Shown here: piece after piece, positions 10,538 to 39,302 of the stretch
How positions within the stretch are numbered: position 1 is the stretch's first letter
Layout of the letters: each line of letters starts with the position of its first letter
Source: an uncultured Planctomycetota bacterium
GTDB lineage: Bacteria > Planctomycetota > UBA11346
Direction of reading: 5' to 3'
DNA length: 64,000 bases
Assembly: GCA_963818245.1 (NCBI GenBank)
Contig: CAWFSD010000043.1
Coordinates: 20,716 to 84,715 of the forward strand
The notes under the pieces: model-generated
What the model was told of the DNA's origin: nothing
What the model saw: the letters and a program-made list of their open reading frames with translations, nothing else
Database searches by the model: none
Translations under genes and position numbers: made by a program

Positions 10538-11676
10538 TCATGGCTGCGCTCCTTCCGCGGCCGCAGCGACCGCACCGACCGCGCTGAGCGGCGGCACGAT
10601 CGCCGCGGCTGCCGGTGCGGGCGGCGGCGCGCGCTGGGGCGCGGTTTCCGGCGGCGCGCCCCCGCGGCGGGAGCGGCGACCTCGTCCATCTCGGCGTAGG
10701 GGATGTCGTGATCGACCAGCGCGAGGTCGGCGAGCGGCAGGCCGACCAGCTTGGCGACCACGTCCGCCGGCTGGAAGCCGTCGAGCCTGATGCCCTTGCG
10801 CGCGTGCGGATCGGGACCGCCGGCGGTGATGATGGTCAGCGGACTGGCGCCCAGGCGCAGCAGATCGGCGCGCGCGGCGTGGGCGAGCACGCAGCGCACC
10901 CCCGGCAGGCGCGCCATGTCGGGCTCCTCGCCGTCGGGCACGATCAGGGTGAAGCGCGGGTTGAGGCGCCCGAAGGCGCGCTCGATCTCATTGACCTGCG
11001 CGCGGAAGACGCGGCCGGCCGCGTCGGCGGTGTAGATGTGGAACACCCCGGGGTCGGCCCACGGATCGACGGTCTCGCCGCTGACGTGGTTGCGCGCCTT
11101 CAGCAGCGCCTCGTCGGCGGCGAACTCGCGGCCGGAGAAGCCGCTCTTCACCCGCCGCAGGGCGCGCAGCACGACCTGGTCCTTGCCCAGGGCGCGGCAG
11201 TACTCGGCGATCGACATGGCCTTGTAGTGGGCGCCGGCGACGTAGCCGAAATACAGCGTGAACAGCTCCGGATCGTTGCCGTGCATGGCCTGGGGGATGG
11301 AGAGCTGCGGGATCGGCATGCCATCGGCGTCGAGGAACAACAGCGTGCCGGCGCTGGCGCCGAAGAAGTTCTGCAGGCGTTCGCCGCCGACCAGGCGGTC
11401 CGTCATCGGGTTGCGCACCTGGTCGCCCGAGCGCAGCACCACCACTGGGATGTCGAGCGTGGCGATCGCCCCGGCCGCGAGCAGCCGCGGCAGGCGGTTG
11501 TCGGGACTGCCGAGATAGACCGCATAGGGTCCCGGGACGCCGGCGCGCAGACGTTCGAGGATGTCGTTCCAACCCGGCAGCGCGGTGGGCGGCGCCTGTG
11601 CGGCGGCCACGGCGGAAGCCCCGCCAAGGAGCAGGAGTGCGGTCAGGACCGCGATGCACGTGCCGGGGAGACGCAT
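10538..11676 (-). CDS. secreted periplasmic protein, two thioredoxin-fold-like halves without CXXC; 3' end reconstructed across a frame change near 10655
   Basis: The signal peptide is MRLPGTCIAVLTALLLLGGASAVAAAQA. The protein-like sequence runs to ...DIPYAEMDEVAAPAAG. After that the track frame becomes an Arg-rich run overlapping the next gene. The -1 frame instead gives APPETAPQRAPPPAPAAAAIVPPLSAVGAVAAAAEGAQP and a stop at 10538-10540. Confidence 0.5.
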
Positions 11677-11903
11677 GCGGAAATGCTAAGCGGCCCGGTC
11701 GACGCACAAACTTGGCAAGGACTGGATGGCCATCTCCAGGTTTGCATTCCCACCCCGGCTTGTCATAGTGCGCGCCTTCGATATGCGCACGTTGCGCCTG
11801 TCATTCCTGAGGCGCCTTCGCTTTCAAAGCCTACGCCTTCCCCCTGCGGTCCGGTCTCACGATCGGCCGCATCACGGGTGCGTCCGCACCCAAGTGAGAT
11901 AAC

Positions 11904-12284
11904 GTGGAACTCTACGTTGGTAATCTTCCCTGGTCCGTCACCGATGAGAGCCTCAGCGCCCTCTTCGCCAAGCACGGCGCCGTTTCGCGCGCCAAGGTCG
12001 TCATGGACCGCGAGAGCGGCCGCAGCCGCGGCTTCGGCTTCGTGACCATGACCAATGACGCCGAAGGCACCGCGGCCATCCAGGCCATCAACGGCACCCA
12101 GGTCGACGGCCGCGCAGTCAACGTGCGCCAGGCCGAAGAGCGCTCGGGCGGCGCTGGCGGCGGTCGCTCCGGCGGCGGCGGCGGTGGTGGTTACGGCGGC
12201 GGCTCGGGCGGCGGCGGTGGTTACGGCGGCGGCTCGGGCGGCGGCGGCGGCGGCGGATACGGCGGCGGTCGTCGCGATCGCTGA
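11904..12284 (+). CDS. RRM-type RNA-binding protein with a Gly-rich tail
   Basis: GTG start. The motifs LYVGNLPWSVTDESL (RNP2) and RGFGFVTM (RNP1) are followed by a GGYGGGSGGGGGYGGG...RRDR tail. Confidence 0.9.
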   Translation: MELYVGNLPWSVTDESLSALFAKHGAVSRAKVVMDRESGRSRGFGFVTMTNDAEGTAAIQAINGTQVDGRAVNVRQAEERSGGAGGGRSGGGGGGGYGGGSGGGGGYGGGSGGGGGGGYGGGRRDR

Positions 12285-12330
12285 ACGCAGCTCCCCGTCC
12301 GCGGCGACGCGGACGGACCGATGCTGAATG

Positions 12331-12365
12331 AACGCTGGCGGGGGCACACCCCGCCAGCGTTTTTT
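12331..12365 (+). terminator. rho-independent terminator of the RNA-binding protein gene (copy 1)
   Basis: An 11-13 bp perfect stem (aacgctggcgggg / ccccgccagcgtt) has a 5-nt loop and is followed by T6. Confidence 0.8.
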
Positions 12366-12424
12366 CATGCCCCGTGCACCGCCGCGCCATGCGCGCGGCG
12401 ACGCGGACGGGCCGATGCTGAATG

Positions 12425-12459
12425 AACGCTGGCGGGGGCACACCCCGGCAGCGTTTTTT
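12425..12459 (+). terminator. second, duplicated terminator (copy 2, one stem mismatch)
   Basis: The hairpin is the same as copy 1 except ccccgGcagcg, and it is followed by T6. Confidence 0.65.
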
Positions 12460-12521
12460 CATGCCCCGTGCACCGCCGCGCCATGCGCGTGCCCATCCGG
12501 GCGCTCATGGCGCAGGCCCGG

Positions 12522-13994
12522 TCACGGCACCGGCGCGGGCTCCTCGAGAATCGCGGCGCGGTGTCGCGCGATGCGCTGCGCGTACTCCGCATCCCCCGCG
12601 GTGAAGGCGTGGACGTCGGGATCCTGGTCGAGCCACTCGAGCACGTAGCCAGAGCGGTCCTCGGCGAGGACCCTGGCCACTCCCGCCATGAAATCCACGC
12701 GGCTGCCGCGCACGCAGGCGAACCAGGTGCACATGCAGTCGTACATCAGGATCTCAGCGCGCGGCGCGCGCACCGCGGCGAAGTCCGCGAGGCCCTCCTC
12801 GCGCCGGCCGGACGAGTACGAATAGCCGGCGCGCAGCACCTGCAGGTACCAGCCCTCGGGGTTGGCGACCAAGCCGGCGCGGATGCTGTCCATGGCCGCG
12901 TCCATCAGGCCATCCTCGCGCTGCGCCATCGCCAGCGTATAGAGTGCTCCGGCGAGCTCGGGGGAGCTTGCCGGCGTCATCGCGACCATCAGCTCTGCGC
13001 ACTGGCGGGCGGCGCCGTGGTCGCGCAGCGAGCGGTGGCAGCTCATCAGCTGGCCGAGCACGGCGCTCTCGATCGCCTTCGGAGCGCTGGCGAAGGCGCG
13101 CAGCAGCAGGGCGCGCTCGACGTCGTAGCGCTGCCCCAGGGCCTGCTCGCGCGCCTGGAACAGCAGTGCCGTCGCCAGCACCGTGGGCGGCGGGCCGGCG
13201 GCGACCAGGGCCGCGATGCCCGCCCGCGCCTCGCTGCGGCGGCCGGCGATGCCGGCCAGGCAGGTGAAGCGGTCGAGCGCGAGGTCCACCCGGTTGGGAG
13301 CGAGCGCCAGCGCGCGGTCGAGCAGCTCGGCCGCGGCGCCCCGCTGGGCCTGCTCCTCGCGCAGCCCGGCGGCCTGCTGCAGCAGCACGGCCAGCGCGCG
13401 GTCCTCGTCGAGGGACGCCCCCCAGCCCAGGGCCGCGACCTCGAGCGGATCGCAGCGCCCCCAGGCGTACAGGTACGTCGCGTCGTCGAACGCGGCCCCC
13501 TGGGCGGTGGTCTCGATGTTGATGCGCGCACCCTGGCCGTCCCAGCGCACGAAGGCGTGGCGGGGGATGACGACCATGCGGATGGGCAGCGCGAGCGCCG
13601 CGCCGACCGCGGCGTAGAGCGTCGCGCCGGCGATGCAGTTGCAGCGGTGGCGCAGCAGGGCCGCGGTGAGCGAGGCGTCGCGCCACAGCTGCGTGGACCG
13701 GTAGACCACGCCCGGCTCGACCAGGATGAGGCGGTTGAGGACGGCGATGCGCTCCGCCGGCGTCGACGCTCCAGCCAGGGCGGACCGGCACGCGGCCACC
13801 AGGGCGGTGAACGCGGCGGTGGCCGCCGCGTCGTCCACCTCGGGTTCCAGCAGGTGGTCCACGGCGAGCGCCCGCGCGAAGAACGTGGACGCGTCCGCGG
13901 GCGCGAGCGGCGCCGGGTCCTGCGCCGCGGCGCAGGCCAGCAGGCACCACGCCCCCAACGCCAGACCGCACGAGTGGATCCTTGCCCTGCGCAT
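12522..13994 (-). CDS. secreted transglutaminase-like (SirB1-type) domain protein with TPR-like helical repeats
   Basis: ATG 13994 gives the signal peptide MRRARIHSCGLALGAWCLLACAAAQ. The motif RCNCIAGATLYAAVGAALALPIRMVVIPRHAFVRWDG...INIETT fits the Cys/His/Asp transglutaminase-like core. The rest is helical repeat. It forms the lower part of composite track ORF 12522..15065. Confidence 0.6.
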   Translation of the reverse strand: MRRARIHSCGLALGAWCLLACAAAQDPAPLAPADASTFFARALAVDHLLEPEVDDAAATAAFTALVAACRSALAGASTPAERIAVLNRLILVEPGVVYRSTQLWRDASLTAALLRHRCNCIAGATLYAAVGAALALPIRMVVIPRHAFVRWDGQGARINIETTAQGAAFDDATYLYAWGRCDPLEVAALGWGASLDEDRALAVLLQQAAGLREEQAQRGAAAELLDRALALAPNRVDLALDRFTCLAGIAGRRSEARAGIAALVAAGPPPTVLATALLFQAREQALGQRYDVERALLLRAFASAPKAIESAVLGQLMSCHRSLRDHGAARQCAELMVAMTPASSPELAGALYTLAMAQREDGLMDAAMDSIRAGLVANPEGWYLQVLRAGYSYSSGRREEGLADFAAVRAPRAEILMYDCMCTWFACVRGSRVDFMAGVARVLAEDRSGYVLEWLDQDPDVHAFTAGDAEYAQRIARHRAAILEEPAPVP

Positions 13995-14071: not shown

Positions 14072-14978
14072 TCAGTGCGCCGCGGTCAGCAGCCCGCGCG
14101 CCTGGAACCACTCCTGCGCGCGCGCCGGCCAGGTGCTGGCGGCGCTCGCCGAGGGCCGCAGCCCGAAGCCGTGGCCGCCATCCGGGTAGACGTGCAGCTC
14201 GGCCGGGACCTTGAGGTTGCGCAGCGCGAGCTGCCAGGCCATGCCGTTCTCGCAGCCGAGCGGGATCGTTCTCCGCGTAGACGATGAAGCTGGGCGGCGC
14301 GTCGGCGGCGGGGGTGACCTCGGGATTCAGCGTCATGGTGCCCTTCGCGACCATGTAGGCCGGGTAGATCAGCAGGGCGAAGTCGGGGCGGCAGGAGAGC
14401 TGATCGACCGCGTCGGCGGCGGGGTATTGGCGCGGCAGCGCGCCGGCCGCGGCGATCGCCACGGCATGGCCGCCGGCGGAGAAGCCGAGCGCGCCGACGC
14501 GCCCGGGGGCGATGCCCCACTCCGCGGCGCGGCTGCGCACCGTGCTGAGCGCGCGCTGCAGGTCCTGCACCGCCGCCTGGTAGGATGGGTGGCCGGCGCG
14601 CGCCGGCACGCGGTAGGTCAGCAGCACGGCGGTGACGCCGCAGCCGTTCAGCCAGCGCGCGACCTCGGTGCCCTCGAGGTCCATGGCCAGGATCGAGTAG
14701 CCGCCGCCGGGGCAGATCACCACGGCCGTGCCGTTGCGCTGGGCCGCCGGCGGCGCGTAGACCGCGATGACCGGCTGCGACACGTCGTGCGCGCGGATGA
14801 TGTGGTCCTTGCCGGGATCCATGACCTGGGGCTTGGCGGGGGTCTCGGGCTCGCCGGGCGCGGGGCCGGCCCACAGCGGCACGGTGGCGAGCGGAGCCGA
14901 TTCGGCCGGCTCGGCTGCGAACGCGCCGGCCAGCGCGGAACCGAGGAGGGCGAGCGCGAGGTAGGAGAAGGACGTCAT
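14072..14978 (-). CDS. secreted alpha/beta-hydrolase (esterase/lipase type); one frame change near 14263
   Basis: ATG 14978 gives MTSFSYLALALLGSALAGAFA. Motifs include VVICPGGGYS, GALGFSAGGH (GxSxG) and FIVYAENDP. After a C-run indel the gene continues LGCENGMAWQLALRNLKVPAELHVYPDGGHGFGL...LLTAAH, with a stop at 14072-14074. Confidence 0.75.
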
Positions 14979-15183
14979 GACGCTCCGGCGGCGGGGGTGT
15001 GGACTGCATACGGCGCTGCGCCCGGGCCGCTGAGCGCGGGGGACGGCGACGGTCGCGGATGGCAAGTTACTTCAGTACCGGGACGCGGTGAAATCCCAGT
15101 AAAAACAGCGAAAATCCTGCACAAATGCCCTTGCCGGAGCGGTGCTGCCGCGCACCGTGCGCCTTCACCCGGAAACCGCCGGC

Positions 15184-17068
15184 ATGGTCAAGGTCCTGAG
15201 GCGGATGTGGGGCGGGGCGCGCGCGGCGCCGCTCGGGCTCGGCGGCCTGTGGAGCGACCTGCTGCTGCTCGCCGGGGTGGCCGGACTGGCCTACGGCGCC
15301 TTCGAGGTGGCGGCGCACTGGCACGGCGTGCGGCGCAGCGCGGTGGTGATCGACCTGTCGCCGTGGATGCTGCCCTGGTACACCTTCCAGTCGCTGATGC
15401 GCGGGCTGCTCGCCTACGTGCTGTCGCTCGGCTTCAGCCTGGCCTACGGCTACTGGGCGGCGAAGGACGCGCGCGCCGCGCGCGTGCTGGTGCCGCTGCT
15501 CGACATCCTGCAGAGCATCCCGGTGCTCGGCTTCATGCCCGGCCTGGTCATCGCGCTGGTGGCGCTGTTCCCGCGCAGCAACATCGGCCTCGAGCTGGCC
15601 GCGGTGCTGATGATCTTCACCGGCCAGGCGTGGAACATGACCTTCAGCTTCTACCGCTCGGTGCAGACCGGTCCCGCGCGAGCAGCTCGAGGCGGCGACG
15701 GTGTTCGGCTTCGGCTGGTGGCAGCGCCTGCGCGCCGTCGAGCTGCCGTTCGCGACCATCGGGCTGGTGTGGAACAGCATGATGAGCATGGCCGGCGGCT
15801 GGTTCTTCCTCACCCTGAGCGAGGCGTTCCAGCTCGGCGACCAGGACTACCGGCTGCCCGGCCTGGGCTCGTACATGAGCGTCGCGGCCGAGGCCGGCGA
15901 CGTCGGCGCGCAGGTCGCCGCGGTGGTGGCGATGATGGCGATGGTGGTCGCGCTCGACCAGCTGCTGTGGCGGCCGCTGGTGGTCTGGGCGCAGAAGTTC
16001 CGCATCGAGGACGGCGGCGGGGGCGAGACCACCTCGTCGTGGTTCCTCGACTGGCTGCGCCGCTCGCGGCTGCGCGCACTGCTGGGGCGCGGCGCGCAGC
16101 GCTGCCGGCGCTGCGGCGACGGCCTGGCGCGCACCGCGCCGCTCGCCGGCGCGGTCGCGCGGCTGCGCGCCTGGTCCCAGCGGCGCGTGGGCGCCTGCCG
16201 CGGCGCGCTGGCGCGCACGCCGCCCGGCGCCTGGCTCGACCGCCGCCTGGGCGCCGGCCACGCGGGGCCGGGGGGGCCGGGCTGGGCGCAGCGCGCGGCG
16301 CGCGGCGTGATGCGCGGACCGGGCGGCTTCCTGGGGCTGCTGCCGCTGGTGGCGCTGCTCGCCCTGCTCGCGTGGGGCGCTTACGAGGTCGCCGTGCTCA
16401 TCGCCCAGCTCGCGCCCGCGCGCTGGGCGGGCATCGCCGCGGCCAGCGGCCTGACGCTCGGCCGGGTGGTCGCGGCGACCGCCATCGGCACGCTCTGGAC
16501 GGTGCCCGTGGGGCTGGCGATCGGGCTGTCGCCGCGGCTCGCGCGCATCTTCCAGCCGATCATCCAGATCGCCGCGTCCTTCCCGGCCTCGATGCTGTTC
16601 CCCGCGGTCATCGCGCTGCTCTCCGCCGCGGGCGTCGGCCTCGGCTGGGGCAGCGTGCTGCTGATGCTGCTCGGCACGCAGTGGTACATCCTCTTCAACG
16701 TCATCGCCGGGACGATGACCATCCCCGCCGACCTGCGCGAGGCCGCGCGCGCCTACAGCATCCCGAAGCGCCAGCGCTTCCGCGAACTCTACCTGCCGGC
16801 GATCTTCCCCTACCTGGTCACCGGCTGGGTGACCGCGATGGGCGGCGCGTGGAACGCCAGCATCGTCGCCGAGTACGTCACCGTGCGGCACGAGACCGTG
16901 ACCACCGCCGGCCTCGGCGCGCTGGTCAGCCGGGCGGCGGCGGCGAACGACCTGCCCCTGCTCGCCGCCAGCGTGCTGGTCATGGCGGTGATCGTGGTCG
17001 GCATCAACCGCCTGCTGTGGCGCCGGCTCTACCGCCTCGCCGAGACCCGCTTCAGCCTGGACAAGTGA
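15184..17068 (+). CDS. ABC transporter permease, duplicated BPD-type domains (NitT/TauT family-like); one frame change near 15669
   Basis: ORF 15142..17082 is protein-like up to ...FSFYRSVQT. The sequence then continues in ORF 15701..17068 as VPREQLEAATVFGFGWWQRL... There are two permease modules (LLDILQSIPVLGFMP... and QIAASFPASMLFP...). Confidence 0.8.
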
Positions 17069-18444: not shown

Positions 18445-18933
18445 TCAGATGTGGCAGTTGCCCAGGCCGCGGCGCTCGAGGTAGCGCTGGTGGTACTCCT
18501 CGGCGCGGTGGAAGGTCTGCGCCGGCGCGATCTGGGTGACGATCGGGCGGCGGAAGCGCTTCTCGGCCTCGAGGCGCGCCTTGACCGCCTGGGCCTCGGC
18601 CTGCTGCTCGGGCGAGTGGTAGAAGACCACCGAGCGGTATTGCGAGCCGACATCCGGTCCCTGGCGGTCGACGGTGGTCGGGTCGTGGCTGCGCCAGAAG
18701 ACCTCGAGCAGCTCGCGGTAGCTGACGCGCGCCGGATCGTAGTGCACCTCGACGACCTCGGCGTGGCCGGTGGTGTCGGTGCAGACCTGCTCGTAGGTCG
18801 GCTTCGCGGTGGTGCCGCCGGCGTAGCCGACCGCGGCGTCGCGCACGCCGGGGATGGCGCGGAAGGTCGCCTCGACGCCCCAGAAGCAGCCGGCGCCGAA
18901 GGTCGCGGTGGCGGTCGTGGTCGTGGTGGTCAT
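18445..18933 (-). CDS. msrA: peptide-methionine (S)-S-oxide reductase
   Basis: Motifs [21 protein letters not shown] and [11 protein letters not shown] are present, and the ORF is an intact 162 aa. Confidence 0.95.
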
Positions 18934-19592
18934 GGCTGTGCTCCTTTACCGGCACCGGCCTGATCGGTGGCGGCGGTGGTGCCGGCGCCCGGCTTCGCGT
19001 CCTGGACCGGCGGCGGCGCGGTGCCGCCGGCGGGCGTAAAGGCGAGCGCCACGGCGTTGATGCAGTAGCGCAGGCCGGTCGGGCGCGGACCGTCGTCGAA
19101 GACGTGGCCGAGGTGGCCGCCGCAGCGCGCGCAGTGGATCTCGTTGCGCACCATGCCGTGGCTGGTGTCGCTCTCGGTCTCGACCCGGCCGGGCAGCTGC
19201 TGGAAGAAGCTCGGCCAGCCGGTGCCGGACTCGAACTTGGCCTCGGCGCTGAACAGCGGTGCGCCGCAGCCCGCGCAATGGTAGGTGCCGGGGCCGTTGT
19301 GCTTGATCGCGGTGTAGCCGCCGCAGAAGGCCGGCTCGGTGCCGTGGCGGCGCAATACGTTGTACTGCTCGAGAGACAGGCGCGCGCGCCACTGGTCGTC
19401 GGTGAGGGTCAGCTTGTCGCCCACGGGTGGGTCCTCCTGGAGTTGGTGATCCGGAACCGCAGCGCGTGCCGCCGGAGCCGCGCCGGCGGCGCTGGCCGGG
19501 GGCGTGGCGCCTGACTGCCGCACGCAGCCGGCGCCCCACGCCACCGCGGCGATGGTGACGATGACGATGGCGGCGGTCAGGATGCGCGGCAT
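18930..19592 (-). CDS. msrB: peptide-methionine (R)-S-oxide reductase with signal/lipoprotein-like leader
   Basis: ATG 19592 gives [23 protein letters not shown]. The SelR core is present: [33 protein letters not shown] and RYCINAV. An ATGA overlap joins it to msrA. Confidence 0.9.
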
Positions 19593-19933: not shown

Positions 19934-20260
19934 ATGAAGATCTCCAACCTGCTCATCGCCGCCGCCGTCACCGGCATCCTCTCCGGCGCCGGCGCCACCT
20001 TCCAGCGCGCCGCGGCCGCCGATGCGGACACCACCGCCGACGGCGCTGAGAAGCACGCCTGCGCGGGCCTCAACTCCTGCAAGGGCAAGGGCGGCTGCAA
20101 GACCGCGAAGCACGAGTGCAAGGCCCACAACGAGTGCAAGGGCCAGGGCGGCTGCGCCACCGCCAAGCACGACTGCAAGGGCAAGAACGACTGCAAGAAC
20201 CAGGGCAAGGGCGGCGCCAACGAGTGCAAGGGCAAGGGCGGTTGCAAAGTCGGCAAGTGA
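19934..20260 (+). CDS. secreted Cys/Lys-rich repeat peptide (10 Cys), possible bufferin (BufA2)-like metallophore precursor
   Basis: The signal peptide is MKISNLLIAAAVTGILSGAGA. The mature part has three units of K-H-x-C-x(2,3)-N-x-C-K-G-x-G-G-C (KHACAGLNSCKGKGGC, KHECKAHNECKGQGGC, KHDCKGKNDCKNQGKGGANECKGKGGC). A terminator follows. Confidence 0.75.
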   Translation: MKISNLLIAAAVTGILSGAGATFQRAAAADADTTADGAEKHACAGLNSCKGKGGCKTAKHECKAHNECKGQGGCATAKHDCKGKNDCKNQGKGGANECKGKGGCKVGK

Positions 20261-20310
20261 TGGCCGGGCGCTCGCGCCCGCAGGCGCGAGGCCTGGGCTA
20301 GCGTGCCTCC

Positions 20311-20347
20311 ACGGATACCCTGGGACCTCCCGGGGTATCCGTGTTTT
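20311..20347 (+). terminator. rho-independent terminator after the Cys-rich peptide gene
   Basis: The stem acggataccc(t)gg / cc(g)gggtatccgt (12-13 bp, one mismatch) is followed by gTTTTc. Confidence 0.6.
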
Positions 20348-20535: not shown

Positions 20536-21017
20536 ATGCGCCTCCTCCACTCCGCCACCTCCCTCCACGCGCGCGGCGTCCACCTGCTCGCCCGCGCCGA
20601 CTGGCTGCCGCCGCTGCTCGCGCGCATCACGGTGGGGTGGATATTCGTCGAGTCCGGCTGGGGCAAGCTGCACCACCTGCCCAAGGTGGTGGAGTACTTC
20701 CGCAGCCTGCACATCCCGGCCCCGGAACTGCAGGCGCCGTTCGCGGCGGGCAGCGAATTCCTCTTCGGCCTCACCGTGCTCTTCGGGCTGTTCACCCGGC
20801 TCTCGACCATCCCGCTGATGGTGATCATGACGGTGGCGATCCTCACCGCCAAGCGCGACGACCTCAACGCGGTCAGCGACCTCTTCGCCTTCTCCGAGTT
20901 CCTCTACATCCTGCTGCTCATCTGGCTGCTCGTGCGCGGCGCGGGCGCGGTCTCGCTCGACCGCCTGCTGCGGCGCGCAGACCACCCGGGCGGCGGCGGC
21001 GCCAGACGGCGCACTGA
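20536..21017 (+). CDS. DoxX family membrane protein (3' end unresolved)
   Basis: ARITVGWIFVESGWGKL..., FLFGLTVLFGLFTRLSTIPLMVIMTVAIL and ...LVRGAGAVSLDRLL are typical of DoxX. The track frame has no stop until 22095. The nearest stop in another frame is TGA 21015, so an indel near 20960-21010 is suspected. Confidence 0.7.
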
Positions 21018-21054
21018 GCGCCGCCGGCCCACGACCGCGAGCACCGGAGCCGCC

Positions 21055-21440
21055 ATGGACCGCCTGCTGCGCCGCCTCGCCTGCGGATCGGCCACCGGCC
21101 TGGTCGCCGCGCCGCTGCTGCTGCCCGGCGACGGCCTCCTGGGCTTGGCGCTGGGCCCCCTGCTCGGCGCGGTGCGGCGCGCTGCTCTTCCCGCCGGCCG
21201 CGCCCGGTCGCCGACCGCTCGACGCGGCCTGCGAGGCGGCCGCGCTCGCCATCCCGCTGTGGGCGCTGGTCGAGCTGCTGGCGCTGCCGCTCGCCACCGG
21301 CCACGAGCCGTCGTGGTCGGCGGCGGCGATGCGCGCGCGTTTCCCGACCCTGCCCGGCTGGGTGATGGCCAGCGCCGCCAGCGGCCTGCTCGGCGGGCTG
21401 GTCGCCCGTGTGGCGGAGCGCCTGCTCGGCGCCGCGGCGG
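21055..21440 (+). CDS. small membrane module paralogous to the N-terminus of the 22793 gene; frame changes near 21175 and 21450; possibly fused to NDH-2
   Basis: MDRLLRRLACGSATGLVAAPLLLPGDGLLGLALGPLLGAV / GALLFPPAAP...LAIPLWALVELLALPL...GWVMASAASGLLGGLVARVAERLLG. No stop is present in the reconstructed frame before the NDH-2 core. Confidence 0.35.
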
Positions 21441-22796
21441 CGCCCGCCAGCGCCCGCGCCGGTGGCGCCGACGCGCGTGCTCATCCTCGGCGGCGGCTTC
21501 GCCGGCGTCGGCGTCGCGACCGAACTCGAACGCCTGGGCGGCGGCGACCCCGCCCTGGCCATCACCCTGGTCAGCGAGACCAACGCCCTGTTGTTCACGC
21601 CGATGCTCGCCGAGGTCGCGGCGAGCAGCCTCGAAGCCACGCACATCAGCAGCCCGCTGCGCACCGCGCTGCGCCGCACCACGGTGGTGCGCGGGCGCGC
21701 CCTGCGCATCGATCACGCGGGCCACCGCGTGCACCTCGAGGACGGGGAGGCGCTCGCCTACGACGAACTGGTGGTCGCGCTGGGCGCGGTCTCCAACCAT
21801 CTCGGCCTGGCCAACGTCCAGCGCGAGGCGTTCGACTTCAAGTCGCTCACCGACGCGATCCGGATCCGCAACCACGTCATCGGCTGCTTCGAGCGCGCGG
21901 ACCGCGAGGGCGACCCTGCGCGGCGGCGCGCGCTCACCACCCTGGTGGTCGCCGGCGGCGGCTTCGCCGGCGCGGAGCTGGCCGGCGGGCTCAACGACTT
22001 CGCGCGCGGCATGCTCGCCTGGTACCCGAACATCCCGCGCGCGGACGTGCAGGTGGTGCTGGTGCACGGCGGCGAGCGCATCCTGGGGGAGTTGAGCGAA
22101 CCGCTCGCCCTCTACGCGCAGCGCCGCATGACCGCACGCGGCGTGACCTTCCGGCTGAAGACGCGGGTCAAGGACGCGCGGCCCGGCGCGGTGGTGCTCA
22201 GCGACGGCGACCTGCCGACCTGGACCCTGGTGTGGACCGCCGGTACCGCGCCGCACCCGGCGCTGCGCACGCTCGGCGCGCCGCTCGACAAGCGCGGCGC
22301 GGTGCTGGTCGACGCGCAGCTCGCGGTCCCCGGCCACCCTGGGGTGTGGGCGCTCGGCGACTGCGCGGCGGTCCCCAACGCCGCCACCGGCAAGAACTGC
22401 CCCCCGACCGCGCAGTTCGCCATCCGCGAGGCCCGCACCCTGGCGCGCAACCTGTTCGCGCGCCGCCGCGGCGCCCCCCTGCAGGCCTTCTCCTTCAGCC
22501 CGCTCGGCGCGCTGTGCGTGGTCGGCCACCACACCGCGTGCGCCGAGATCAGGGGACTGCGCTTCTCCGGGCTGTTCGCCTGGTTCCTGTGGCGCGGCAT
22601 CTACCTGGGCAAGCTGCCGACCCTGGAGCGCAAGGTGCGCGTGCTGGTCGACTGGGTGATCGAGCTGTTCTTCCCCCGCGACATCGTCCAGACCGTCGAC
22701 CTCGCCGCCGTCCCGGCCGCCACGGCCGAGGCCACGGCCCCGGCGCCGGGCGCGCCCGGCGCCATCCCGGTCGCCGCCTCCGGAGCCACGCCATGA
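21408..22796 (+). CDS. ndh: type II NADH dehydrogenase (NDH-2)
   Basis: There are two dinucleotide folds, RVLILGGGFAGV and LVVAGGGFAGAELAG, plus VWALGDCA. A more conservative start is GTG 21462 (VAPTRVLILGGG). Confidence 0.85.
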   Translation: MWRSACSAPRRRPPAPAPVAPTRVLILGGGFAGVGVATELERLGGGDPALAITLVSETNALLFTPMLAEVAASSLEATHISSPLRTALRRTTVVRGRALRIDHAGHRVHLEDGEALAYDELVVALGAVSNHLGLANVQREAFDFKSLTDAIRIRNHVIGCFERADREGDPARRRALTTLVVAGGGFAGAELAGGLNDFARGMLAWYPNIPRADVQVVLVHGGERILGELSEPLALYAQRRMTARGVTFRLKTRVKDARPGAVVLSDGDLPTWTLVWTAGTAPHPALRTLGAPLDKRGAVLVDAQLAVPGHPGVWALGDCAAVPNAATGKNCPPTAQFAIREARTLARNLFARRRGAPLQAFSFSPLGALCVVGHHTACAEIRGLRFSGLFAWFLWRGIYLGKLPTLERKVRVLVDWVIELFFPRDIVQTVDLAAVPAATAEATAPAPGAPGAIPVAASGATP

Positions 22797-24193
22797 ACCG
22801 CTGCACGCTCAAAGCCACGATCGCCTGCACGGCGGTGGGCGCGGCCGGCGGCGGCGCGTGCCTGGCGCTGGGCCTGGCCACGCCGCTGACCGGACCGCTG
22901 TTCGGCGCCGCCGCCGGCCTGGCTTTCGCGCCACTCACGGAAACGCGCGCCGGCACGCCCGGCGCCGGCCTGATCTGGGGCCTGGCCTACGCGCTGGTGC
23001 TGTGGCTGGCCGGGCCCGCGTGGCTGTTCGCCTGGTGCGCGGGCGGAGGCTGCACGCTCGACGGCGCGCGCAGCCACCTCCCCGAGCTGTGCGCCTACCT
23101 GCTGACCCTGGGCATGCCGTTGGGCCTGGTGCTGGGCGGCATCGGCCTGAGCCACGGCGCAGGGCGCGCCGCCGCGCCCGAGGTCGGCCCGGCGACCAGC
23201 CTCGCCCGCGCGCTGGCGGTCGGCGCGCTCGGCGGCCTGCTCGGCGCCTGGCTGTTCGCGCGCACCGGGGCGCGCGCCGAGCTCGGCCTGCTGGCGGCGG
23301 GTGGAGGTGGAGGCGCGCTGCTGCACGCCGCGCTCGCCATGCTGGTCGGCGCCGGCTTCGGCCTGCTCTTCCAGCGCGACGTGCGCAGCTACGGCTCGAG
23401 CATGGGCTGGGGCCTGGGCTACGGCATGCTGTGGTTCTTCCTCGGCCCGCTGACCATCGCGCCGCTGTGGGCGGGCGCCGCGCCCGCCTGGGACCACGAG
23501 GGGATCGCCGCGCGCTTCGGCGCGCTCCCCGGCCACGCGCTGTTCGGCCTCGTGCTCGGCCTCGGCTACGCCACCATCGACCGCCTGTGGGTGGCGTTCT
23601 TCCACGACTCGGACCCGCTCACGCGCAGCGCCGAGGGCCCGGGCACGCGCACCCTGCTCGGACTGGGCTGGGGCGCGCTCGCCGGCCTCGCCGGCGGCCT
23701 GGTGTTCGGCCTGCCCATGCTCGCCACCGGCATCCTGCCCTACGTCGCCAGCCTGGTCGGCGCCAGCGCGCCGCTGGTGGGCCTCGTCGTCCACCTCGCG
23801 ATCAGCGTGCTGCTCGGAATGCTCTACGGCCTGCTCTTCCTGCGCGAGGCGCAGGACCCCGGCGCCGGCGTCGGCTGGGGCCTGGTCTATGGCCTGATGT
23901 GGTGGTTCCTCGGCCAGCTCACACTCTTCCCCTGGCTGCTCGACGGCACCTTCGAGTGGGGCAGCGCCGACGCCGCGGCGGCGCTGCCGTCGCTGCTCGG
24001 CCACCTTTTCTACGGGGGCACCACGGCGCTGGTGTTCATGCTCCTCGAGCGGCGCTACGACCGGCGGACGGCCGGCGATCCGCGCGACCTGGCGCGGCGC
24101 GCCGCGCTGCGCCGCCCGGGCGGCACCCCGGCGCCGGCGCTGTGGCTGTTCGCGCTCGGCGTCGGGCTGCTGCTGCCGGTGCTGGTCGGATGA
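22793..24193 (+). CDS. polytopic membrane protein built from three internal repeats, unknown function
   Basis: An ATGA overlap joins it to ndh. The recurring motif G-x-G-W-G-L-x-Y-G-x-x-W-(W/F)-F-L-G-x-L-T occurs three times: GLIWGLAYALVLWLAGPAW, MGWGLGYGMLWFFLGPLTIAPLW and VGWGLVYGLMWWFLGQLTLFPWL. Confidence 0.7.
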   Translation: MNRCTLKATIACTAVGAAGGGACLALGLATPLTGPLFGAAAGLAFAPLTETRAGTPGAGLIWGLAYALVLWLAGPAWLFAWCAGGGCTLDGARSHLPELCAYLLTLGMPLGLVLGGIGLSHGAGRAAAPEVGPATSLARALAVGALGGLLGAWLFARTGARAELGLLAAGGGGGALLHAALAMLVGAGFGLLFQRDVRSYGSSMGWGLGYGMLWFFLGPLTIAPLWAGAAPAWDHEGIAARFGALPGHALFGLVLGLGYATIDRLWVAFFHDSDPLTRSAEGPGTRTLLGLGWGALAGLAGGLVFGLPMLATGILPYVASLVGASAPLVGLVVHLAISVLLGMLYGLLFLREAQDPGAGVGWGLVYGLMWWFLGQLTLFPWLLDGTFEWGSADAAAALPSLLGHLFYGGTTALVFMLLERRYDRRTAGDPRDLARRAALRRPGGTPAPALWLFALGVGLLLPVLVG

Positions 24194-29476: not shown

Positions 29477-29797
29477 AGCAGATGCCTGGATTGCCTTGGC
29501 ACGAACGGCATGATGATAGATTCCAGGAATGGTTCAGACGCATCCCATGGAGCGCACGCCACTGAGCGGACGGGGCTGGTGCAACGACGGTTGCATGGTG
29601 CGTCGTGGCGGCGCACACACTGGTACATGGCGTGGAAACCATCACTCTACATTCTCGATCGGCCCCACCAGGATCTGTTGTATAGTCGTCAGCACGAACG
29701 GCGGATAGCCGGCGGTCTCAGCCGCACCGCGGATGCCACACCGCCACGCCTGATCCGCCCCGACGATCCTGCCGTCCCTGTAGCCGTGGAGTTCCCG

Positions 29798-32650
29798 ATG
29801 CACCCTCCAGCCCGCCGCTCCGACCTGCGCACGCCACGCCGCTTCCGCTCCACCGCGCTGCTGCTCGGCGCGGTCGCCGCCTGCCTCGCGCAGCCGCTCA
29901 GCGCCGCGGACCCGGTCGGGCAGATCATCGGCAAGGCCGCGGCCGCCGGCCGCCTGCCCTACATGCTGTACCTGCCGAACAGCTACAACACCGATGCGCA
30001 GGCGACCTTCCCGCTGGTGGTCTGCCTGGGCGGCGTCAGCGAGGTCGGCAACGGCTCGTACGATGGGACGCTCAACGAGTCCGGGACCAACCAGCTCGCC
30101 TACGTGCTGCACCACGGTCCGCTGCAGCTGATCCGCAGCGGCGTCACCTTCTTCAGCGACAACCCCACCATCGTCATCCATCCCGAGAACCCCAACAACA
30201 ACTACAGCGCCGCCACCATCGACGCGACCATCACCCAGGTCGCCACCGCCTACCGCGTCGACCCCAGCCGCATCTACGTCACCGGCTACAGCCTGGGCGG
30301 CGGCGGGGCCTGGCTCTACGGCCAGGCCCACGCCGCGCGCCTCGCCGCCCTGGTGCCGATCGCCGGCGCGTCCTACCCCGCGAATCCCAACAGCTTCGCC
30401 AGCATGTCATCCCTGCCCGTGTGGGCCGTGCACAATGCGCTGGACGGCACCGTGCCGGCCGCGTGGACCACCGGCACCACCACCGCCTTCACCCCCAACC
30501 TGGTCGGCTGGGTCAGCGGCATCGCGGCCGGCCAGGGCGGCATCAACCCGCGCTGCCTCGACAACTACCCCGGCGCCATCGGCTTCACCACGGCTGGCGC
30601 GCCGCTCTCGCCCAAGACCATCACCGGCGTGAACGCGACGCGCAGCGGCCACTATCACCCCTCCTTGGGCTGGGGCTGGAACGACGGCACCGTGTTCGTC
30701 GGCGGCGACTACACCCAGGTCACCATCATCAACGCTGCCGACCACAACGGCTGGGACGCCACCTACGGCACCGGCAGCGGCAGCGCCTTCAACACGGCGT
30801 TCTGGACCTGGCTGCTCGCGCAGCGGCAGGGCCTCGCGCCCGTCGCCCTGGGCAACACCGAGGTCGTCGTCGACGACACCTTCAACAGCAACGGTTCGAC
30901 GACCAGCGCCTCGGGCACCTGGTCCTCCGGCAGCTCGGCGGCCGCGTTCGACGGCACCTACGCCTTCTCCCACTTCGGCACGTCGTTCACCTTCCACCCC
31001 AACCTGCCGGCGACCGACACCTACCAGGCCTACATCTGGTACAGCGGCGCCAGCGGCGTGGCCCTCAGCACGGTGGTGCCGGTGACCGTCTTCGCCAGCG
31101 GCGTGACCACCAACCTCACCATCGACGAGGCCTTCGGAGCCGGTCACTGGGTGCCGATCGGCATCTATCAGTGCGCCTCGGGCACCGGTACCGCGGTGAC
31201 GATCGGGACCGCCGGCGCGAACGGCGCGGTCTCGGCCGACGCGGTGCGTTTCGTGCGGCTGCCCGGCGCCAGCGTCAACACCCCGCCCACCGTCTCGCTG
31301 ATCGGCAACCAGACCCTGACCGCCAGCGCCACGGTCACGCCCGCGTTCACCATCGGCGACGCGCAGACCGCGGCCGCCAACCTGAGCGTGCAGGCCACCG
31401 CCGTCGACACCACGCTGCTGCCGCCCGGCGGCCTGGTGCTGGGCGGCAGCGGCGCCAGCCGCACGCTCGCCATCACCCCCGCCACCGGCCTGACCGGCAG
31501 CACCAGCGTGGTGCTCACCGTCACTGACGACAGCGGCCTCGCCACCAGCACCAGCTTCACGGTGACGGTCACCGCGACGCCGGGCGACACTCCGCCGACC
31601 ATCAGCGGCACCATTCCCGACCAGAACCTCGCGATCGGCGGCAGCTCTGCGGCCCTGGCCTTCACCGTCGGCGATGCCGAGACCGCGGCGAGCGCGCTGG
31701 TCGTGACGAGGTCCTCGAGCAACCCGGGCTACCTGCCGGTCTCCGGGCTGGTGCTGGGCGGCAGCGGTGCGTCCCGCACCGTCACCGTCACGCCGGCCCC
31801 CGGCCAGAGCGGCAGCGCCACGGTCACGCTCACGGTCATCGACGGCGGCGGCCTGGCGGCGAGCAAGAGCTTCAGTGTGACGACCGCGGCGCCCGCCAAC
31901 ACCCCGCCGACCATCACCAACATCATCGACCAGGTCCTGCCGGTCGGCGGCCATTCCTCCGGGCGCGCCTTCACCATCGGCGATGCGGAGACCGCGGTCA
32001 CCAGCCTGGTCGTCACCGCCACGTCCTCCAACCCGACCTACCTGCCCAACTCCGGTCTGGTGCTGGCCGGCACCGGCGCGAGCCGGAGCGTGACCATCTC
32101 AACGGCGGCCGGGCAGAGCGGCTCCGCCACGGTCACCCTCACCGTCACCGATGGCGGGGGCCTGAGCGCGATCACGGACTTCCTGGTCTCCTCGACCGGG
32201 CTGGTGGGACCGACCATCAGCACCATTCCCAACCAGAGCCTGGCCAGCGGCAGCGCCTCGCCGTCCATCCCCTTCACGGTCACCGATCCCGCGGTGACGA
32301 CCATCACCATGCAGGCCGGCATCGCCCCGAGCGGTGCCCTGGACTGCGCCTTCTCGGGGGCGGCCGGCTCGCGCAGCCTGGTCATCACCCCCGCGGCGGG
32401 CGTCAGCGGCGCCTACCAGGTGACCGTCACCGCGCAGGACGCCAATGGCCTGTCCGCGTCCCGCACCTTCACCGCGACGGTGACGTCCGGCGGGCCAGGG
32501 TCGGGGGGTGGATCGGGCTCGAGCAGCGGCGGTGGGGGTGGGGGCAGCGGAGGCGGCTGCGGCCTGGGATCAGGAGCCTATGCCTTGACTGGACTGTTCA
32601 TGCTCGCCCTGCGCAGCCTGGTGGTGGCCGCCTGGCGGCGCCGCGATTGA
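29798..32650 (+). CDS. secreted alpha/beta-hydrolase + golvesin-C-like carbohydrate-binding domain + 4 Ig-like repeats + Gly/Cys C-terminal sorting signal
   Basis: ATG 29798. The esterase module has elbow GYSLGGGG. GTWSSGSS...YQAYIWYSG...ADAVRFVRL matches the golvesin C-terminal-like domain. Four ~100-aa repeats follow (NTPPT(V/I)S...GDA(Q/E)TA...LTVTD(D/G)GGL). The tail is GGGGSGGGCGLGSGAYALTGLFMLALRSLVVAAWRRRD. The gene is intact over 2.85 kb. Confidence 0.8.
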   Translation: MHPPARRSDLRTPRRFRSTALLLGAVAACLAQPLSAADPVGQIIGKAAAAGRLPYMLYLPNSYNTDAQATFPLVVCLGGVSEVGNGSYDGTLNESGTNQLAYVLHHGPLQLIRSGVTFFSDNPTIVIHPENPNNNYSAATIDATITQVATAYRVDPSRIYVTGYSLGGGGAWLYGQAHAARLAALVPIAGASYPANPNSFASMSSLPVWAVHNALDGTVPAAWTTGTTTAFTPNLVGWVSGIAAGQGGINPRCLDNYPGAIGFTTAGAPLSPKTITGVNATRSGHYHPSLGWGWNDGTVFVGGDYTQVTIINAADHNGWDATYGTGSGSAFNTAFWTWLLAQRQGLAPVALGNTEVVVDDTFNSNGSTTSASGTWSSGSSAAAFDGTYAFSHFGTSFTFHPNLPATDTYQAYIWYSGASGVALSTVVPVTVFASGVTTNLTIDEAFGAGHWVPIGIYQCASGTGTAVTIGTAGANGAVSADAVRFVRLPGASVNTPPTVSLIGNQTLTASATVTPAFTIGDAQTAAANLSVQATAVDTTLLPPGGLVLGGSGASRTLAITPATGLTGSTSVVLTVTDDSGLATSTSFTVTVTATPGDTPPTISGTIPDQNLAIGGSSAALAFTVGDAETAASALVVTRSSSNPGYLPVSGLVLGGSGASRTVTVTPAPGQSGSATVTLTVIDGGGLAASKSFSVTTAAPANTPPTITNIIDQVLPVGGHSSGRAFTIGDAETAVTSLVVTATSSNPTYLPNSGLVLAGTGASRSVTISTAAGQSGSATVTLTVTDGGGLSAITDFLVSSTGLVGPTISTIPNQSLASGSASPSIPFTVTDPAVTTITMQAGIAPSGALDCAFSGAAGSRSLVITPAAGVSGAYQVTVTAQDANGLSASRTFTATVTSGGPGSGGGSGSSSGGGGGGSGGGCGLGSGAYALTGLFMLALRSLVVAAWRRRD

Positions 32651-33249: not shown

Positions 33250-36200
33250 ATGAATCCCGTCCGCACCGCCCTCCTCACCCTGCTGCTGCTCGCCTGCGGG
33301 GCCCTCGGCCTCGCCACGGCCACGGCCGCCGAGCCCAGCGTCGGCTTCAACGGCTGGACGAACACGCCCGGGGTGGTCGAGGGCGTGCTCAGCGTGCGTC
33401 CGATCAACACGACCCTGCCGAAGCCGACCTACGGCTACCTGGAGTACCTGCCCAAGGGCTACAATGCGAGCGACACCACCACCAAGTGGCCGGTGGTGTT
33501 CGTCCTGAATGGCCTCGGCGAGACCGGCGACGGCACCGACACGGTCGCCAACGGCCACCAGCTCACCGTCAAGCTGACCACCAACGGCCCGCTCTTCGAC
33601 GTGGCCAGCCAGCACTGGGACTTCCCCAGCATCGTGATCAGCCCGCAGTCCAGCGGCGCGTGGAACCAGAACAACATCAAGCTGATGGTCGACTACGTGA
33701 AGGCCAACTACCGCGTCGACACCACGCGCATCTTCATGACCGGCCTGGGTGACGGCGCCTCGGGCCTGTTCCGCTTCGCCACCGCGTATCCCGGCGTCCT
33801 GGCCGGCGCGATCCCCATCGAGGCCACCTACGCGCCGACCACCAGCGCCGAGAGCGACGCGATCAAGCACCTGCCGCTGTGGCTGGTGCACGCGTTCTCC
33901 GACGCGGCCGTGAACCGCCGCACGACCGTCGCCTGGCTCAACCAGGCGACCCTGGCCGACACCGGGCTCGCCTCGGACGTCATGGCCGCCTACCCCGGCT
34001 ACGGCGGCACCAGCAACCACTACGCGTGCGACACCGACCCCGCCACCGGCCTCCCGCTCAACCCGGCGGGCCCGGTCAGCACGGTCGCGAACGCGGTCCT
34101 GACCACCGGCAGCGCCACGGCAGCGCTGCCCGCCGGCAACCTGATCGCGAACGCCGGCTCGTTCTACGTCGCGCTGTGGACCGGCAGCGATGCCGCGCCC
34201 TTCACGCGCGTGCAGTACGGCGCCGACCCGACCAGCTACGTGGTCAAGAACGCCGGCGCCACCGGCATCGGCGCGAGCAAGGTGTTCAGCGGTCCCTCGC
34301 AGACCGCCGATGCGCACATCACGACCCCGGTCGGCCTGGTGCTGAGCGCCTACTACCAGCCCGCCACGGGCACCTGGGCGTGGCCCAAGACCTCGGGCCA
34401 GACCCCGCCCCCGGCCGGCACCCCCGACAACCGCATCCTGACCCTGTACTGGCAGTACGACCAGACCGCGGCGTGGTCCAACACCTACCTCAATGGGCAG
34501 GTCTGGGACTGGCTGTACTCGCGCGCTCCGCTGAACGGTCCGGTCACCCCGGCGACCGTCACCCTCGGCGGCCTCAGCACCGTCTACACCGGCGCCGCCC
34601 AGGCCCCGACCGTCACCACCTCGCCCGCGGGCCTGGCGGTGACCCTCACCTACAACGGCGTGGCGGCGCAGCCGGTCAACGCCGGCAGCTACGCGGTGGT
34701 GGCGACCATCGCCAACCCGGCCTATTCCGGCAGCGCCAGCGGCACCCTGGCCATCGCCCCGGCCCCGGTCGCCATCGGCCTCTCCGGCCTCGCGGCGACG
34801 TGGGACGGCGGGGCGAAGCAGGCCACCGCCACCACCAACCCGGCCGGCGTGCCGGTGAACGTGGCCTACTCCGGCGGCGCGACCCCGGTCGAGCCCGGCT
34901 CCTACGCGGTGACGGCGACCTCGGCGACCACCAACTACACCGGCGCTCCCGCCACCGGCACGCTGGTCATCGCCAAGGCGAACGCGACCGTCACCCTCGG
35001 CCAGCTCGCGGCGACCGCCGATGGCAACCCGAAGCCGGTCTCCGCCGCCACCGTGCCGGTGAACCTGGCGGTCGCGGTCACCTACGACGGTTCGCCGACG
35101 GTGCCGAGCGCGCCGGGCACCTACGCGCTCGTCGCCACCATCAATGACGCGCACTACCAGGGCGGGACCACCGGCACCCTGACCATCAGCGCCGCCCCCG
35201 TCTCGGGTCTGACCCTCACCGAACCCGGCGACCACCGGGTCGTGCAGCGCGCGATCGGCGGCTTCAGCGGTGCGGTGGCCTTCTCCGGCACCATCACGGG
35301 CGAGCAGCCCGTCCGCCTCGATGCGCGCGTGGTGCGGAGCGACGGCCGCGGCGACTGGGTGGTGGATTGGACGACGATCGCCACCGCCCCGGCCGTCGGC
35401 GCCTGGACCGGGAGCCTGACCGTGCCCCAGGGCGGCTGGTACCGGGTCGAGGTGCGCAGCGTCGAGCCAGGGCGGGGCGATCCTCGGCAGCGCGGCCAGC
35501 TCCCTCCCCTGGGGCGTCGGCATCAACATCCTGTGCATCGGCCAGTCGAACATGGTCGGCTTCGGCGACCTGAACTTCACCGTCGCCGACGACCTCGTCG
35601 GCCTGCTGCGCAGCGGCGCCGGCTGGCAGCACCTCGCGGACCCGTGGATCAACGGCGGCAAGGCCTCGTGCGGGCCGGCGCTGGGCAACGCCCTGGTGGC
35701 GGCCATGGGCATCCCGGTCGGCCTGGTGCCGGCCGCGACCCTCGACACGACCATGAACGCGAACGGCCCGACCGACCTGTCGTTCCGCAACGCCGCCAAC
35801 CCCAGCGACGCCACCACCACCTACGGCAAGGCGCTGCGCGCCGCGGCCGCGGCCGGCGGCGTGGAGTTCGTGTGCGTCTCGCAGGGCGCCGCGGAAGCCT
35901 TCGCGGGCACCACCTCCACCGCCGCCTACGTCGCCGCCTTCACCCAGATGCAGAGCAACTTCCACAGCGACCTGGCGAACGGGGCGCAGGTGAAGTTCGT
36001 GCTCTCGCAGCTCGGCCGCCGCGTCGCCACCCCGGCGGCGGACGCCGGCTACGACGCCATCCGCGAAGCCCACCGCCAGCTCGATGACGGCTTCGCCACC
36101 CTGCTCGCCGGCAGCACCGTGGACTTCCCGCTCGCCGACGGCATCACCCACTACGGCCAGGCCGGCCAGGACCCGCACGGCCGCCGCTTCGCGCGCGCCA

Positions 36201-39239: not shown

Positions 39240-39266
39240 GCCGCGCGGACGCGGGCTGCACGCGGG

Positions 39267-39302
39267 ATCCCGCCCTGGCTAGCCAGGGCGGGATTCTTCG
39301 TT
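39267..39302 (+). terminator. rho-independent terminator after the giant gene
   Basis: A 12-bp perfect stem (atcccgccctgg / ccagggcgggat) has the loop ctag and is followed by tcttcgtt. Confidence 0.6.

Follow-up and report, generated by a model that had tools for sequence, protein, structure and literature searches.

We analysed a 64,000-nucleotide stretch of DNA from an uncultured Planctomycetota bacterium (assembly GCA_963818245.1, contig CAWFSD010000043.1, positions 20,716 to 84,715; the whole stretch is referred to as the window), and in particular a short gene at 19934..20260 that encodes a cysteine-rich peptide with a predicted signal peptide. The peptide belongs to the Buf2/BufA2 family of precursors of bufferins, which are ribosomally made periplasmic peptides that chelate copper. 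The locus looks like one half, precursor and DoxX, of a bufferin gene set that is split; the precursor gene has its own terminator and lies immediately upstream of a DoxX gene. The modifying enzymes are probably encoded elsewhere in the genome, and we consider it likely (probability roughly 0.7) that the precursor is matured in trans by BufB and BufC enzymes encoded together with a paralogous precursor, and would then be exported by Sec to chelate copper in the periplasm. The features of the two genes are listed below.

19934..20260, plus strand: bufA2-type bufferin precursor gene, 108 amino acids plus stop (match to NCBIfam model NF050166, G+C at third codon positions, dN/dS)
19934..20020, plus strand: predicted signal peptide, residues 1 to about 21-29 (sequence inspection, alignment of homologues)
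20060..20155, plus strand: first Buf2 domain with all six Cys, namely C43, C49, C55, C62, C68 and C74 (NF050166 stretch, Cys columns in the homologue alignment A1)
20174..20245, plus strand: second, reduced Buf2 domain with four of six Cys, namely C81, C87, C98 and C104 (alignment A1, repeat copies)
20310..20347, plus strand: intrinsic-terminator-like hairpin (z-score of the fold, conservation in the related locus L006)
20536..20985, plus strand: DoxX gene, probably of the bufferin-cluster (BufD/HvfX) type, 3' end uncertain (Pfam DoxX, NF050144)

The open reading frame (ORF) of the precursor begins with ATG at 19934 and ends with TGA at 20258-20260. Its 108 codons specify MKISNLLIAAAVTGILSGAGATFQRAAAADADTTADGAEKHACAGLNSCKGKGGCKTAKHECKAHNECKGQGGCATAKHDCKGKNDCKNQGKGGANECKGKGGCKVGK, which opens with MKISNLLIAAAVTGILSGAGATFQRAAAADADTTADGAEKHAC and closes with ...KVGK. 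The length and the ten Cys (residues 43, 49, 55, 62, 68, 74, 81, 87, 98 and 104) agree with the initial annotation, which had also described a mature region of about 65 residues composed nearly entirely of Cys, Lys, Gly, His, Asn, Ala and Asp/Glu; the Cys-rich core, K40-K108, comes near enough to this with 69 residues (16 Lys, 15 Gly, 10 Cys, 7 Ala, 5 Asn, 4 His, 3 Glu and 7 others). In eight of the ten Cys, Lys follows directly. G+C content at the first, second and third codon positions (GC1, GC2 and GC3) is 0.56, 0.54 and 0.96, a clear coding signature, and that of the 64-kb window as a whole is 73%. Repeat units of 57 nt (19 aa) begin in the gene at 20050, 20107 and 20164, and a fourth copy overlaps at +33, so that the third unit does resemble two partial units, as had been noticed earlier. 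Tandem Repeats Finder described the same array with a period of 57, 2.3 copies and 82% matches.

The assignment to BufA2 had been proposed from the appearance of the peptide, and a search with profile hidden Markov models (HMMs) confirmed it. The precursor scored 67 bits (E = 1.2e-18) against NF050166 (Cu_RiPP_BufA2, an equivalog model for BufA2 family periplasmic bufferin-type metallophores), which has a cutoff of 60 bits. This was the sole NCBIfam model matched, in two stretches, the best of which covers residues 15-72. A large protein collection held 3291 homologues at E <= 1e-3, many of them from metagenome-assembled genomes (MAGs) of Planctomycetota, Acidobacteriota, Verrucomicrobiota and Myxococcota, and 89 of these were aligned (alignment A1). 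All ten Cys of the precursor fall in columns that are invariant or at least 90% conserved, as do several Gly and Asn. The His of the K-H-x-C motif, to which the initial annotation had drawn attention, is present; it is however not a trait of this peptide in particular, since both H41 and H79 fall in columns with at least 90% conservation among the 89 homologues. The DUF2282 model (PF10048), suggested earlier alongside that of BufA2, gave no match; the one Pfam hit obtained at E <= 10, to DUF2613, was below threshold. DUF7640 (PF24646) appeared below threshold on some homologues and not on the window precursor, and a profile search of sequences in the PDB gave no match at E <= 1.

Apparently genuine BufA2 genes can score well below the NF050166 cutoff. 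This was observed at L009 (10001-10321, 41.5 bits), L070 (5873-6241, 43.5 bits) and L080 (5573-5884, 37.2 bits), and the L009 gene lies directly upstream of a bufB whose product does exceed the cutoff of the BufB model. Many members of the family, especially those with a reduced number of Cys, will for this reason escape automated annotation.

The founder of the Buf2 family (Buf_6/12Cys) is CCNA_03001 of Caulobacter vibrioides. The window precursor resembles the family in its signal peptide, its score above the curated cutoff, its K-H-x-C...N-x-C-K-G-x-G-G-C motifs and its two-domain 12-Cys architecture with six conserved Cys per domain (here six and four), and in the adjoining DoxX, probably of bufferin type. 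It differs in having ten Cys where the family has 6 or 12. Comparison with 12-Cys homologues in A1 located the missing segment, with Cys III' and IV', in the second domain, which reads ...NDCKNQGKGGANEC..., and the alignment thus shows the precursor to be of the two-domain 12-Cys type minus two second-domain Cys. The 10-Cys form recurs in P0003-P0005, P0007, P0010, P0013 and P0016 and at L014 and L015. P0016 is encoded on three contigs (L003-L005) directly upstream of genes for PF05114 (MNIO, multinuclear non-haem iron-dependent oxidase) and PF09836 (DUF2063). L014 and L015 lie upstream of bufB, the order at L014 being BufB-BufC-DoxX-MsrA. The 10-Cys pattern is therefore compatible with MNIO clusters and is not restricted to orphans, as we call precursor genes that are unlinked to a maturase gene.

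Two other classes of precursor are similar in some respects. Buf1 (BufA1/DUF2282) shares Sec export, membership in the class of copper chelators in which MNIO and DUF2063 proteins convert Cys to thiooxazole, and an operon that includes DoxX (BufD); however, Buf1 peptides have four Cys and belong to a different sequence family, and the SigF/NrsF regulators typical of Buf1 are absent from the window locus. The oxazolin/HvfA precursors with EGKCG repeats ('captophorins', PMC13097082) share repeats of Cys, Lys and Gly, modification by MNIO enzymes, signal peptides, DoxX (HvfX) and a link to copper. Their repeat is a Lys-Cys 5-mer, whereas the window precursor is of Cys-Lys type, with units of about 19 residues carrying three Cys each, and contains no EGKCG motif, its Lys standing after the Cys and not before. 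BufA2-type MNIO substrates are in fact described as 'Cys-Lys' substrates (PMC13097082).

Inspection of the N-terminus and alignment with homologues bore out the Sec-type signal peptide proposed initially. An n-region (MK) precedes a hydrophobic stretch from I3 to A21, and candidate AxA-type cleavage sites are present after residue 21 (AGA before T) and near residue 28 (AAA before A), the exact site being uncertain. The precursor N-terminus has neither a lipobox Cys nor a twin arginine. The h-region aligns with all 89 homologues, among which the motif AAVTGILxGAG is conserved family-wide, with conservation of 90% or more at G14 and G18. This hydrophobic core (AAVxGxxAG) is unusually well conserved across phyla and is nearly identical in the orphan and in the BufB-linked paralogue at L009; the signal peptide may also be a recognition (leader) element. 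A twin-arginine-like start (MKRRDFTKAIAG, MNRRDFSKMM, MDRRDFNKLM) was seen in 33 of the 89 homologues in A1 and in 13 of 88 locus-derived peptides, at L016, L020, L021, L028, L033-L035, L039, L041, L046, L056 and L062, mostly beside BufB/BufC. These sequences suggest that part of the BufA2 family may be exported by the twin-arginine translocation (Tat) pathway rather than by Sec, a route that is not mentioned for bufferins in PMC11626156 or PMC12452194.

A hairpin and T-run reported at 20311-20347 were also substantiated. The hairpin has a perfect 15-bp stem (20310-20324 with 20329-20343), a loop of ACCU and a UUUU tail at 20344-20347. A 111-nt region around it folds with -68.4 kcal/mol (z = -5.75), and none of 200 shuffled sequences was as stable. 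It did not appear in a simple terminator scan because its T-run has only four T. The orthologous locus L006 has the same hairpin, in which GGATACC/GGTATCC has become GAATACC/GGTATTC through a compensatory change, and the approximately 100 nt 5' of the start codon are far better conserved between the two loci than the sequence further upstream. Rfam models detected no riboswitch and no small RNA around the gene; the 3' part of the hairpin matched weakly, and only at the terminator end, the sX6 family (20.2 bits, where the gathering score is 40). A scan for the sigma-70-like promoter consensus gave no match.

The DoxX gene starts at 20536, 189 nt past the T-run, in keeping with the 190 nt given earlier. 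Its product matches Pfam DoxX (6.4e-21, 75 bits) and scores 78.3-79.1 bits, just under the cutoff of 80, on NF050144, the model for HvfX family maturation proteins of Cu-binding RiPPs (ribosomally synthesised and post-translationally modified peptides). DoxX proteins inside canonical Buf2 clusters score 74.9 (L038) and 62.9 bits (L014) on this model. Since the window DoxX scores at least as high as these, it is probably a DoxX of the bufferin-cluster kind. The reading frame remains open to 22095, without the stop codon present in L006.

The initial annotation had reported no MNIO or DUF2063 gene within at least 4 kb on either side of the precursor, and we found that this extends to the whole 64-kb window. 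A tblastn search of the window with BufB and BufC of L003 gave a best E value of 0.056. Profile HMMs, built from 120 BufB and 60 BufC sequences and run with filters off on all six frames, returned best E values of 5 (BufB) and 2.2 (BufC). The same HMMs detected both enzymes at L009, which served as the positive control (BufB 1.6e-161, BufC 6.6e-92). We also scanned related loci in one genome per species, which yielded 80 loci with 82 BufA2-type genes. BufB was encoded within 3 kb of 70 of the 82, and 23 of these 70 also had DoxX. Seven genes were unlinked with at least 3 kb of flanking sequence on both sides, three of them with DoxX (L006, L070 and L080); one further gene had BufB about 4.6 kb away, and linkage could not be assigned for the remaining four. 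Orphans and complete clusters can occur in one genome, as in Bacterium SZAS-1, which has orphans L018 and L022 and the complete cluster L024. In the published description of the family, MNIO linkage is not obligatory for Buf2 and sizeable shares of Buf1 and Buf2 precursor genes are unlinked to MNIO, some being single-gene transcription units; among 864 complete genomes with Buf2, none lacks an MNIO (PMC12452194, Table 3).

A candidate for the missing enzymes was found in a sister genome. The Planctomycetota MAG JBBQSO01 contains the orthologue of the window locus, L006, whose peptide is 95% identical and scores 62.8 bits on NF050166. The gene order is the same as in the window, MsrA-MsrB on one side and BufA2-DoxX-NDH2-membrane protein on the other, with neighbouring proteins 82-90% identical. 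On another contig, L009, the same MAG has a canonical bufA2-bufB-bufC operon. Its BufB scores 343.5 bits on NF050167 (cutoff 310), and its BufC matches Pfam DUF2063 with 1.9e-15. The L009 precursor is a paralogue of the orphan, 66% identical over residues 1-83, with nine Cys and the N-terminus MKISNAILAAAVTGILAGAG (MKISN..AAAVTGIL.GAG, as in the orphan). No DoxX gene lies within 10 kb on either side of the L009 operon, and L006 has one; the four core bufferin genes of JBBQSO01 are therefore split over two loci. A BufB protein 96% identical to that of L009, P0126, lies on a 262,870-bp contig recorded in NCBI and ENA, the same two sources as for the 149,131-bp contig of the window peptide (P0001), and it is possible that P0126 is encoded in the source genome of the window. 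The paralogous precursors of L009 and L013 were not in the protein collection.

The initial annotation had left two alternatives, a precursor modified in trans or an unmodified buffering peptide. We favour modification in trans because the sister MAG carries both the syntenic orphan L006 and the bufA2-bufB-bufC operon of L009, because P0126 places a nearly identical BufB in a second assembly, and because Buf2 was never found without an MNIO in the 864 complete genomes. The general traits given there for bufferins (precursors with signal peptides, MNIO and DUF2063 enzymes, frequent DoxX) agree with PMC11626156 and PMC12452194. In Caulobacter, BufB and BufC are necessary and sufficient for the conversion of Cys to 5-thiooxazole. 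DoxX is not required, and the signal peptide is dispensable for modification, which means that the core peptide is recognised by BufB/BufC. Cys I and VI of Buf2 are unmodified and probably form a disulfide, and Cys II-V carry a change of -4.03 Da (all from PMC11626156).

By analogy with these results, we propose that the MNIO (BufB) and its partner BufC, with DUF2063 and a RiPP recognition element, would act on the window precursor in the cytoplasm, both enzymes being supplied from another locus, where their genes would adjoin that of a paralogous precursor, and would turn internal Cys into 5-thiooxazoles. The modified residues would be C49, C55, C62 and C68, possibly joined by C87 and C98. 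The signal peptide would route the precursor through Sec, after which the outer Cys of each domain (C43 with C74, C81 with C104) could pair as disulfides, and the mature peptide would sequester excess periplasmic copper. The modification, its sites and the binding of copper are all drawn from this analogy.

The genes surrounding the precursor and DoxX are as follows.

18445-18933, minus strand: msrA, overlapping msrB and without a signal peptide (Pfam PMSR 3e-66; syntenic in L006)
18933-19592, minus strand: msrB, with a lipoprotein-like N-terminus (…AAVAWGAGC…), divergent from the precursor gene (Pfam SelR 5e-47; syntenic in L006)
21055..22796, plus strand: pyridine nucleotide-disulfide oxidoreductase of the NDH-2 type, whose N-terminus carries a membrane extension (Pfam Pyr_redox_2, NDH2_C)
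22793..24193, plus strand: 466-aa polytopic membrane protein (weak DUF1440 match; 90% identical and syntenic in L006)

In the window the NDH-2 extension is split over three reading frames, the result of two +1 insertions, one near 21172 and one near 21449. In L006 the NDH-2 is one continuous ORF of 577 aa (11163-12895), in which the N-terminal membrane extension takes up some 130 aa. The frame breaks in DoxX and NDH-2 (20985-21470) are either assembly indel errors or real frameshifts. When the BufA2-DoxX-NDH2-membrane protein module was sought in the other orphans, L070 and L080 were found to share DoxX alone, together with a sigma/anti-sigma gene; the larger module is therefore specific to the lineage of the window.

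Several points weigh against maturation in trans followed by copper chelation. The 64-kb window has no MNIO or DUF2063 gene, and that the source genome has an MNIO is a supposition from the sister MAG and P0126. The second domain is short of two Cys that are normally conserved. Near the precursor there are no copper-specific genes and no pair of genes for an extracytoplasmic function (ECF) sigma factor and its anti-sigma factor; tblastn with such proteins from other Buf2 loci detected none in the window, L006 or L009. The neighbouring genes are msrBA and NDH-2, not maturase or regulator genes, and they suggest oxidative rather than copper stress. A structure prediction (AlphaFold2 with the 89-sequence alignment) was uninformative, with a mean predicted local distance difference test score (pLDDT) of 44.7 and a predicted template modelling score (pTM) of 0.16. 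Finally, PMC12452194 gives modification in trans of unlinked precursors as one of two possibilities.

Regulatory and repair genes were also observed at other loci. Several Buf2 loci, two orphan BufA2-DoxX pairs among them, are flanked by ECF sigma or anti-sigma genes (zf-HC2- or PDZ-type); they were seen at L070 (6794-7696) and L080 (4995-5237; N-terminal motifs only) and at L003 (8192-9663; precomputed Pfam hits). According to PMC12452194, sigma and anti-sigma genes are present in Buf1 clusters and absent from Buf2 clusters. In the Acidobacteria locus L014, msrA (12460-12888) follows BufA2-BufB-BufC-DoxX, and at L084 an msrA (14875-15339) lies about 2.8 kb beyond BufC, which hints at a recurrent association of bufferin genes with methionine-sulfoxide reductases.

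The alternative that survives best, though we consider it unlikely, is that the peptide is exported by Sec without modification and acts through its thiols or disulfides and His residues, either as a metallothionein-like metal buffer or as a sacrificial scavenger of oxidants such as hypochlorous acid (HOCl). Together with DoxX, a membrane-anchored NDH-2 and MsrA/MsrB it would form an envelope redox-stress module. The 64 kb without a maturase gene, the conserved order of msrA-msrB and bufA2-doxX-ndh-membrane protein in the sister genome and the occurrence of MsrA in or close to the canonical Buf2 clusters L014 and L084 are all consistent with this. PMC12452194 allows for the case that unlinked precursors 'are not modified', and a DoxX homologue from another genetic context was reported to be protective against oxidative or sulphur stress, as cited in that paper. 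However, the precursor scores 67 bits on the BufA2 model against 41.5 bits for the BufB-linked paralogue at L009, and it has therefore not drifted from the consensus of a substrate. The sister genome does have a maturase operon, and the absence of any Buf2 genome without MNIO in the published survey speaks in the same direction. In Caulobacter the binding of metal, including copper, requires the thiooxazole heterocycles (PMC11626156), and ten free Cys would largely become disulfides in an oxidising periplasm. A more specific version would have the bufferin scaffold recruited in this lineage, unmodified and not an MNIO substrate, into a conserved envelope redox-stress operon (lipoprotein-like MsrB and MsrA, peptide, DoxX, membrane-anchored NDH-2 and polytopic membrane protein), in which quinone-linked chemistry of DoxX and NDH-2 recycles its thiols or handles bound Cu(II)/Cu(I); this is speculative and somewhat less probable still.

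There is a slimmer chance that the locus is what remains of a bufferin cluster after decay or rearrangement, a duplicated precursor left beside DoxX after the loss of bufB and bufC, and now poorly expressed or functionless. The order BufA2-DoxX-BufB-BufC occurs at L038, and there are other orders that contain DoxX, so that a deletion or rearrangement could yield a BufA2-DoxX pair. The two missing Cys of the second domain and the two frameshifts in the extension of the downstream NDH-2 would also fit decay. On the other hand, the precursor genes of the window and L006 differ at 15 nt, with a rate of 0.031 for non-synonymous (dN) and 0.110 for synonymous substitutions (dS), and the ratio dN/dS of 0.28 means that the orphan precursor is under purifying selection. 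No Cys has been lost in any of three variants, window/P0001, P0002 and L006, which share 95-100% identity; the GC3 of 0.96 is that of a coding gene, and the terminator hairpin is maintained through a compensatory substitution. The 10-Cys form is a conserved subtype that also occurs beside MNIO genes, and the same orphan arrangement is found in two genomes whose neighbouring proteins are just 82-90% identical. We also observed that dS of the precursor (0.11; 19934-20257) is about one third of that of the adjacent doxX (0.36; 20536-20970) between the window and L006. This could reflect strong constraint on codons or expression, constraint from the internal repeats, or a recent exchange between lineages.

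That the gene is a chance ORF, or an artefact of low complexity where the genome has 73% G+C, has next to no probability: although spurious long ORFs abound in all six frames of the window and the peptide is of low complexity, it exceeds a curated HMM cutoff, has thousands of homologues across phyla with conserved Cys spacing, consistently upstream of MNIO genes, and bears a strong GC3 signature. Both this reading and that of a metallothionein were rejected on HMM score, sequence conservation and gene context.

Repeats were seen at three further places in the window. A 94-nt tandem duplication (12300-12489, 2.0 copies, 97% identical) carries in each copy a terminator-like hairpin with a T-run (CGCTGGCGGGGGCACACCCCGCCAGCGTTTTTT), and lies just 3' of a Gly-rich (GGC)n stretch that spans 12147-12268. 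Two long in-frame tandem repeats, one at 31429-32164 (period 309 nt, 2.4 copies, within the very large ORF 29477-32650) and the other at 37027-37437 (period 216 nt, 1.9 copies, within the very large ORF 35420-39304), probably encode repeated extracellular domains.

The window precursor is comparable to the stand-alone Buf2 genes of PMC12452194, which it resembles in being unlinked to MNIO and possibly a single-gene transcription unit; for those genes, either an MNIO encoded elsewhere or no modification at all is proposed in that paper. It differs from them in that a concrete candidate locus for the maturases (L009) is available in a sister genome, and in that the orphan has kept the DoxX that L009 lacks. 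The 10-Cys topology, where the published count is 6 or 12, the split set with DoxX beside the orphan and the msrBA/NDH-2 neighbourhood are modestly new. None of these alters the kind of system. Stand-alone Buf2 genes have already been published, and the current annotation models of NCBI would already name the window precursor. The locus is a clean example for a question in the bufferin literature, namely the fate of precursor genes that lie away from their maturase. The evidence points to a split set, with a precursor-BufB-BufC locus and a second locus that has a paralogous precursor and the only nearby DoxX. The precursor-DoxX locus is conserved in two Planctomycetota genomes beside methionine-sulfoxide reductases and NDH-2, a hint that bufferins and DoxX may be connected with oxidative stress.

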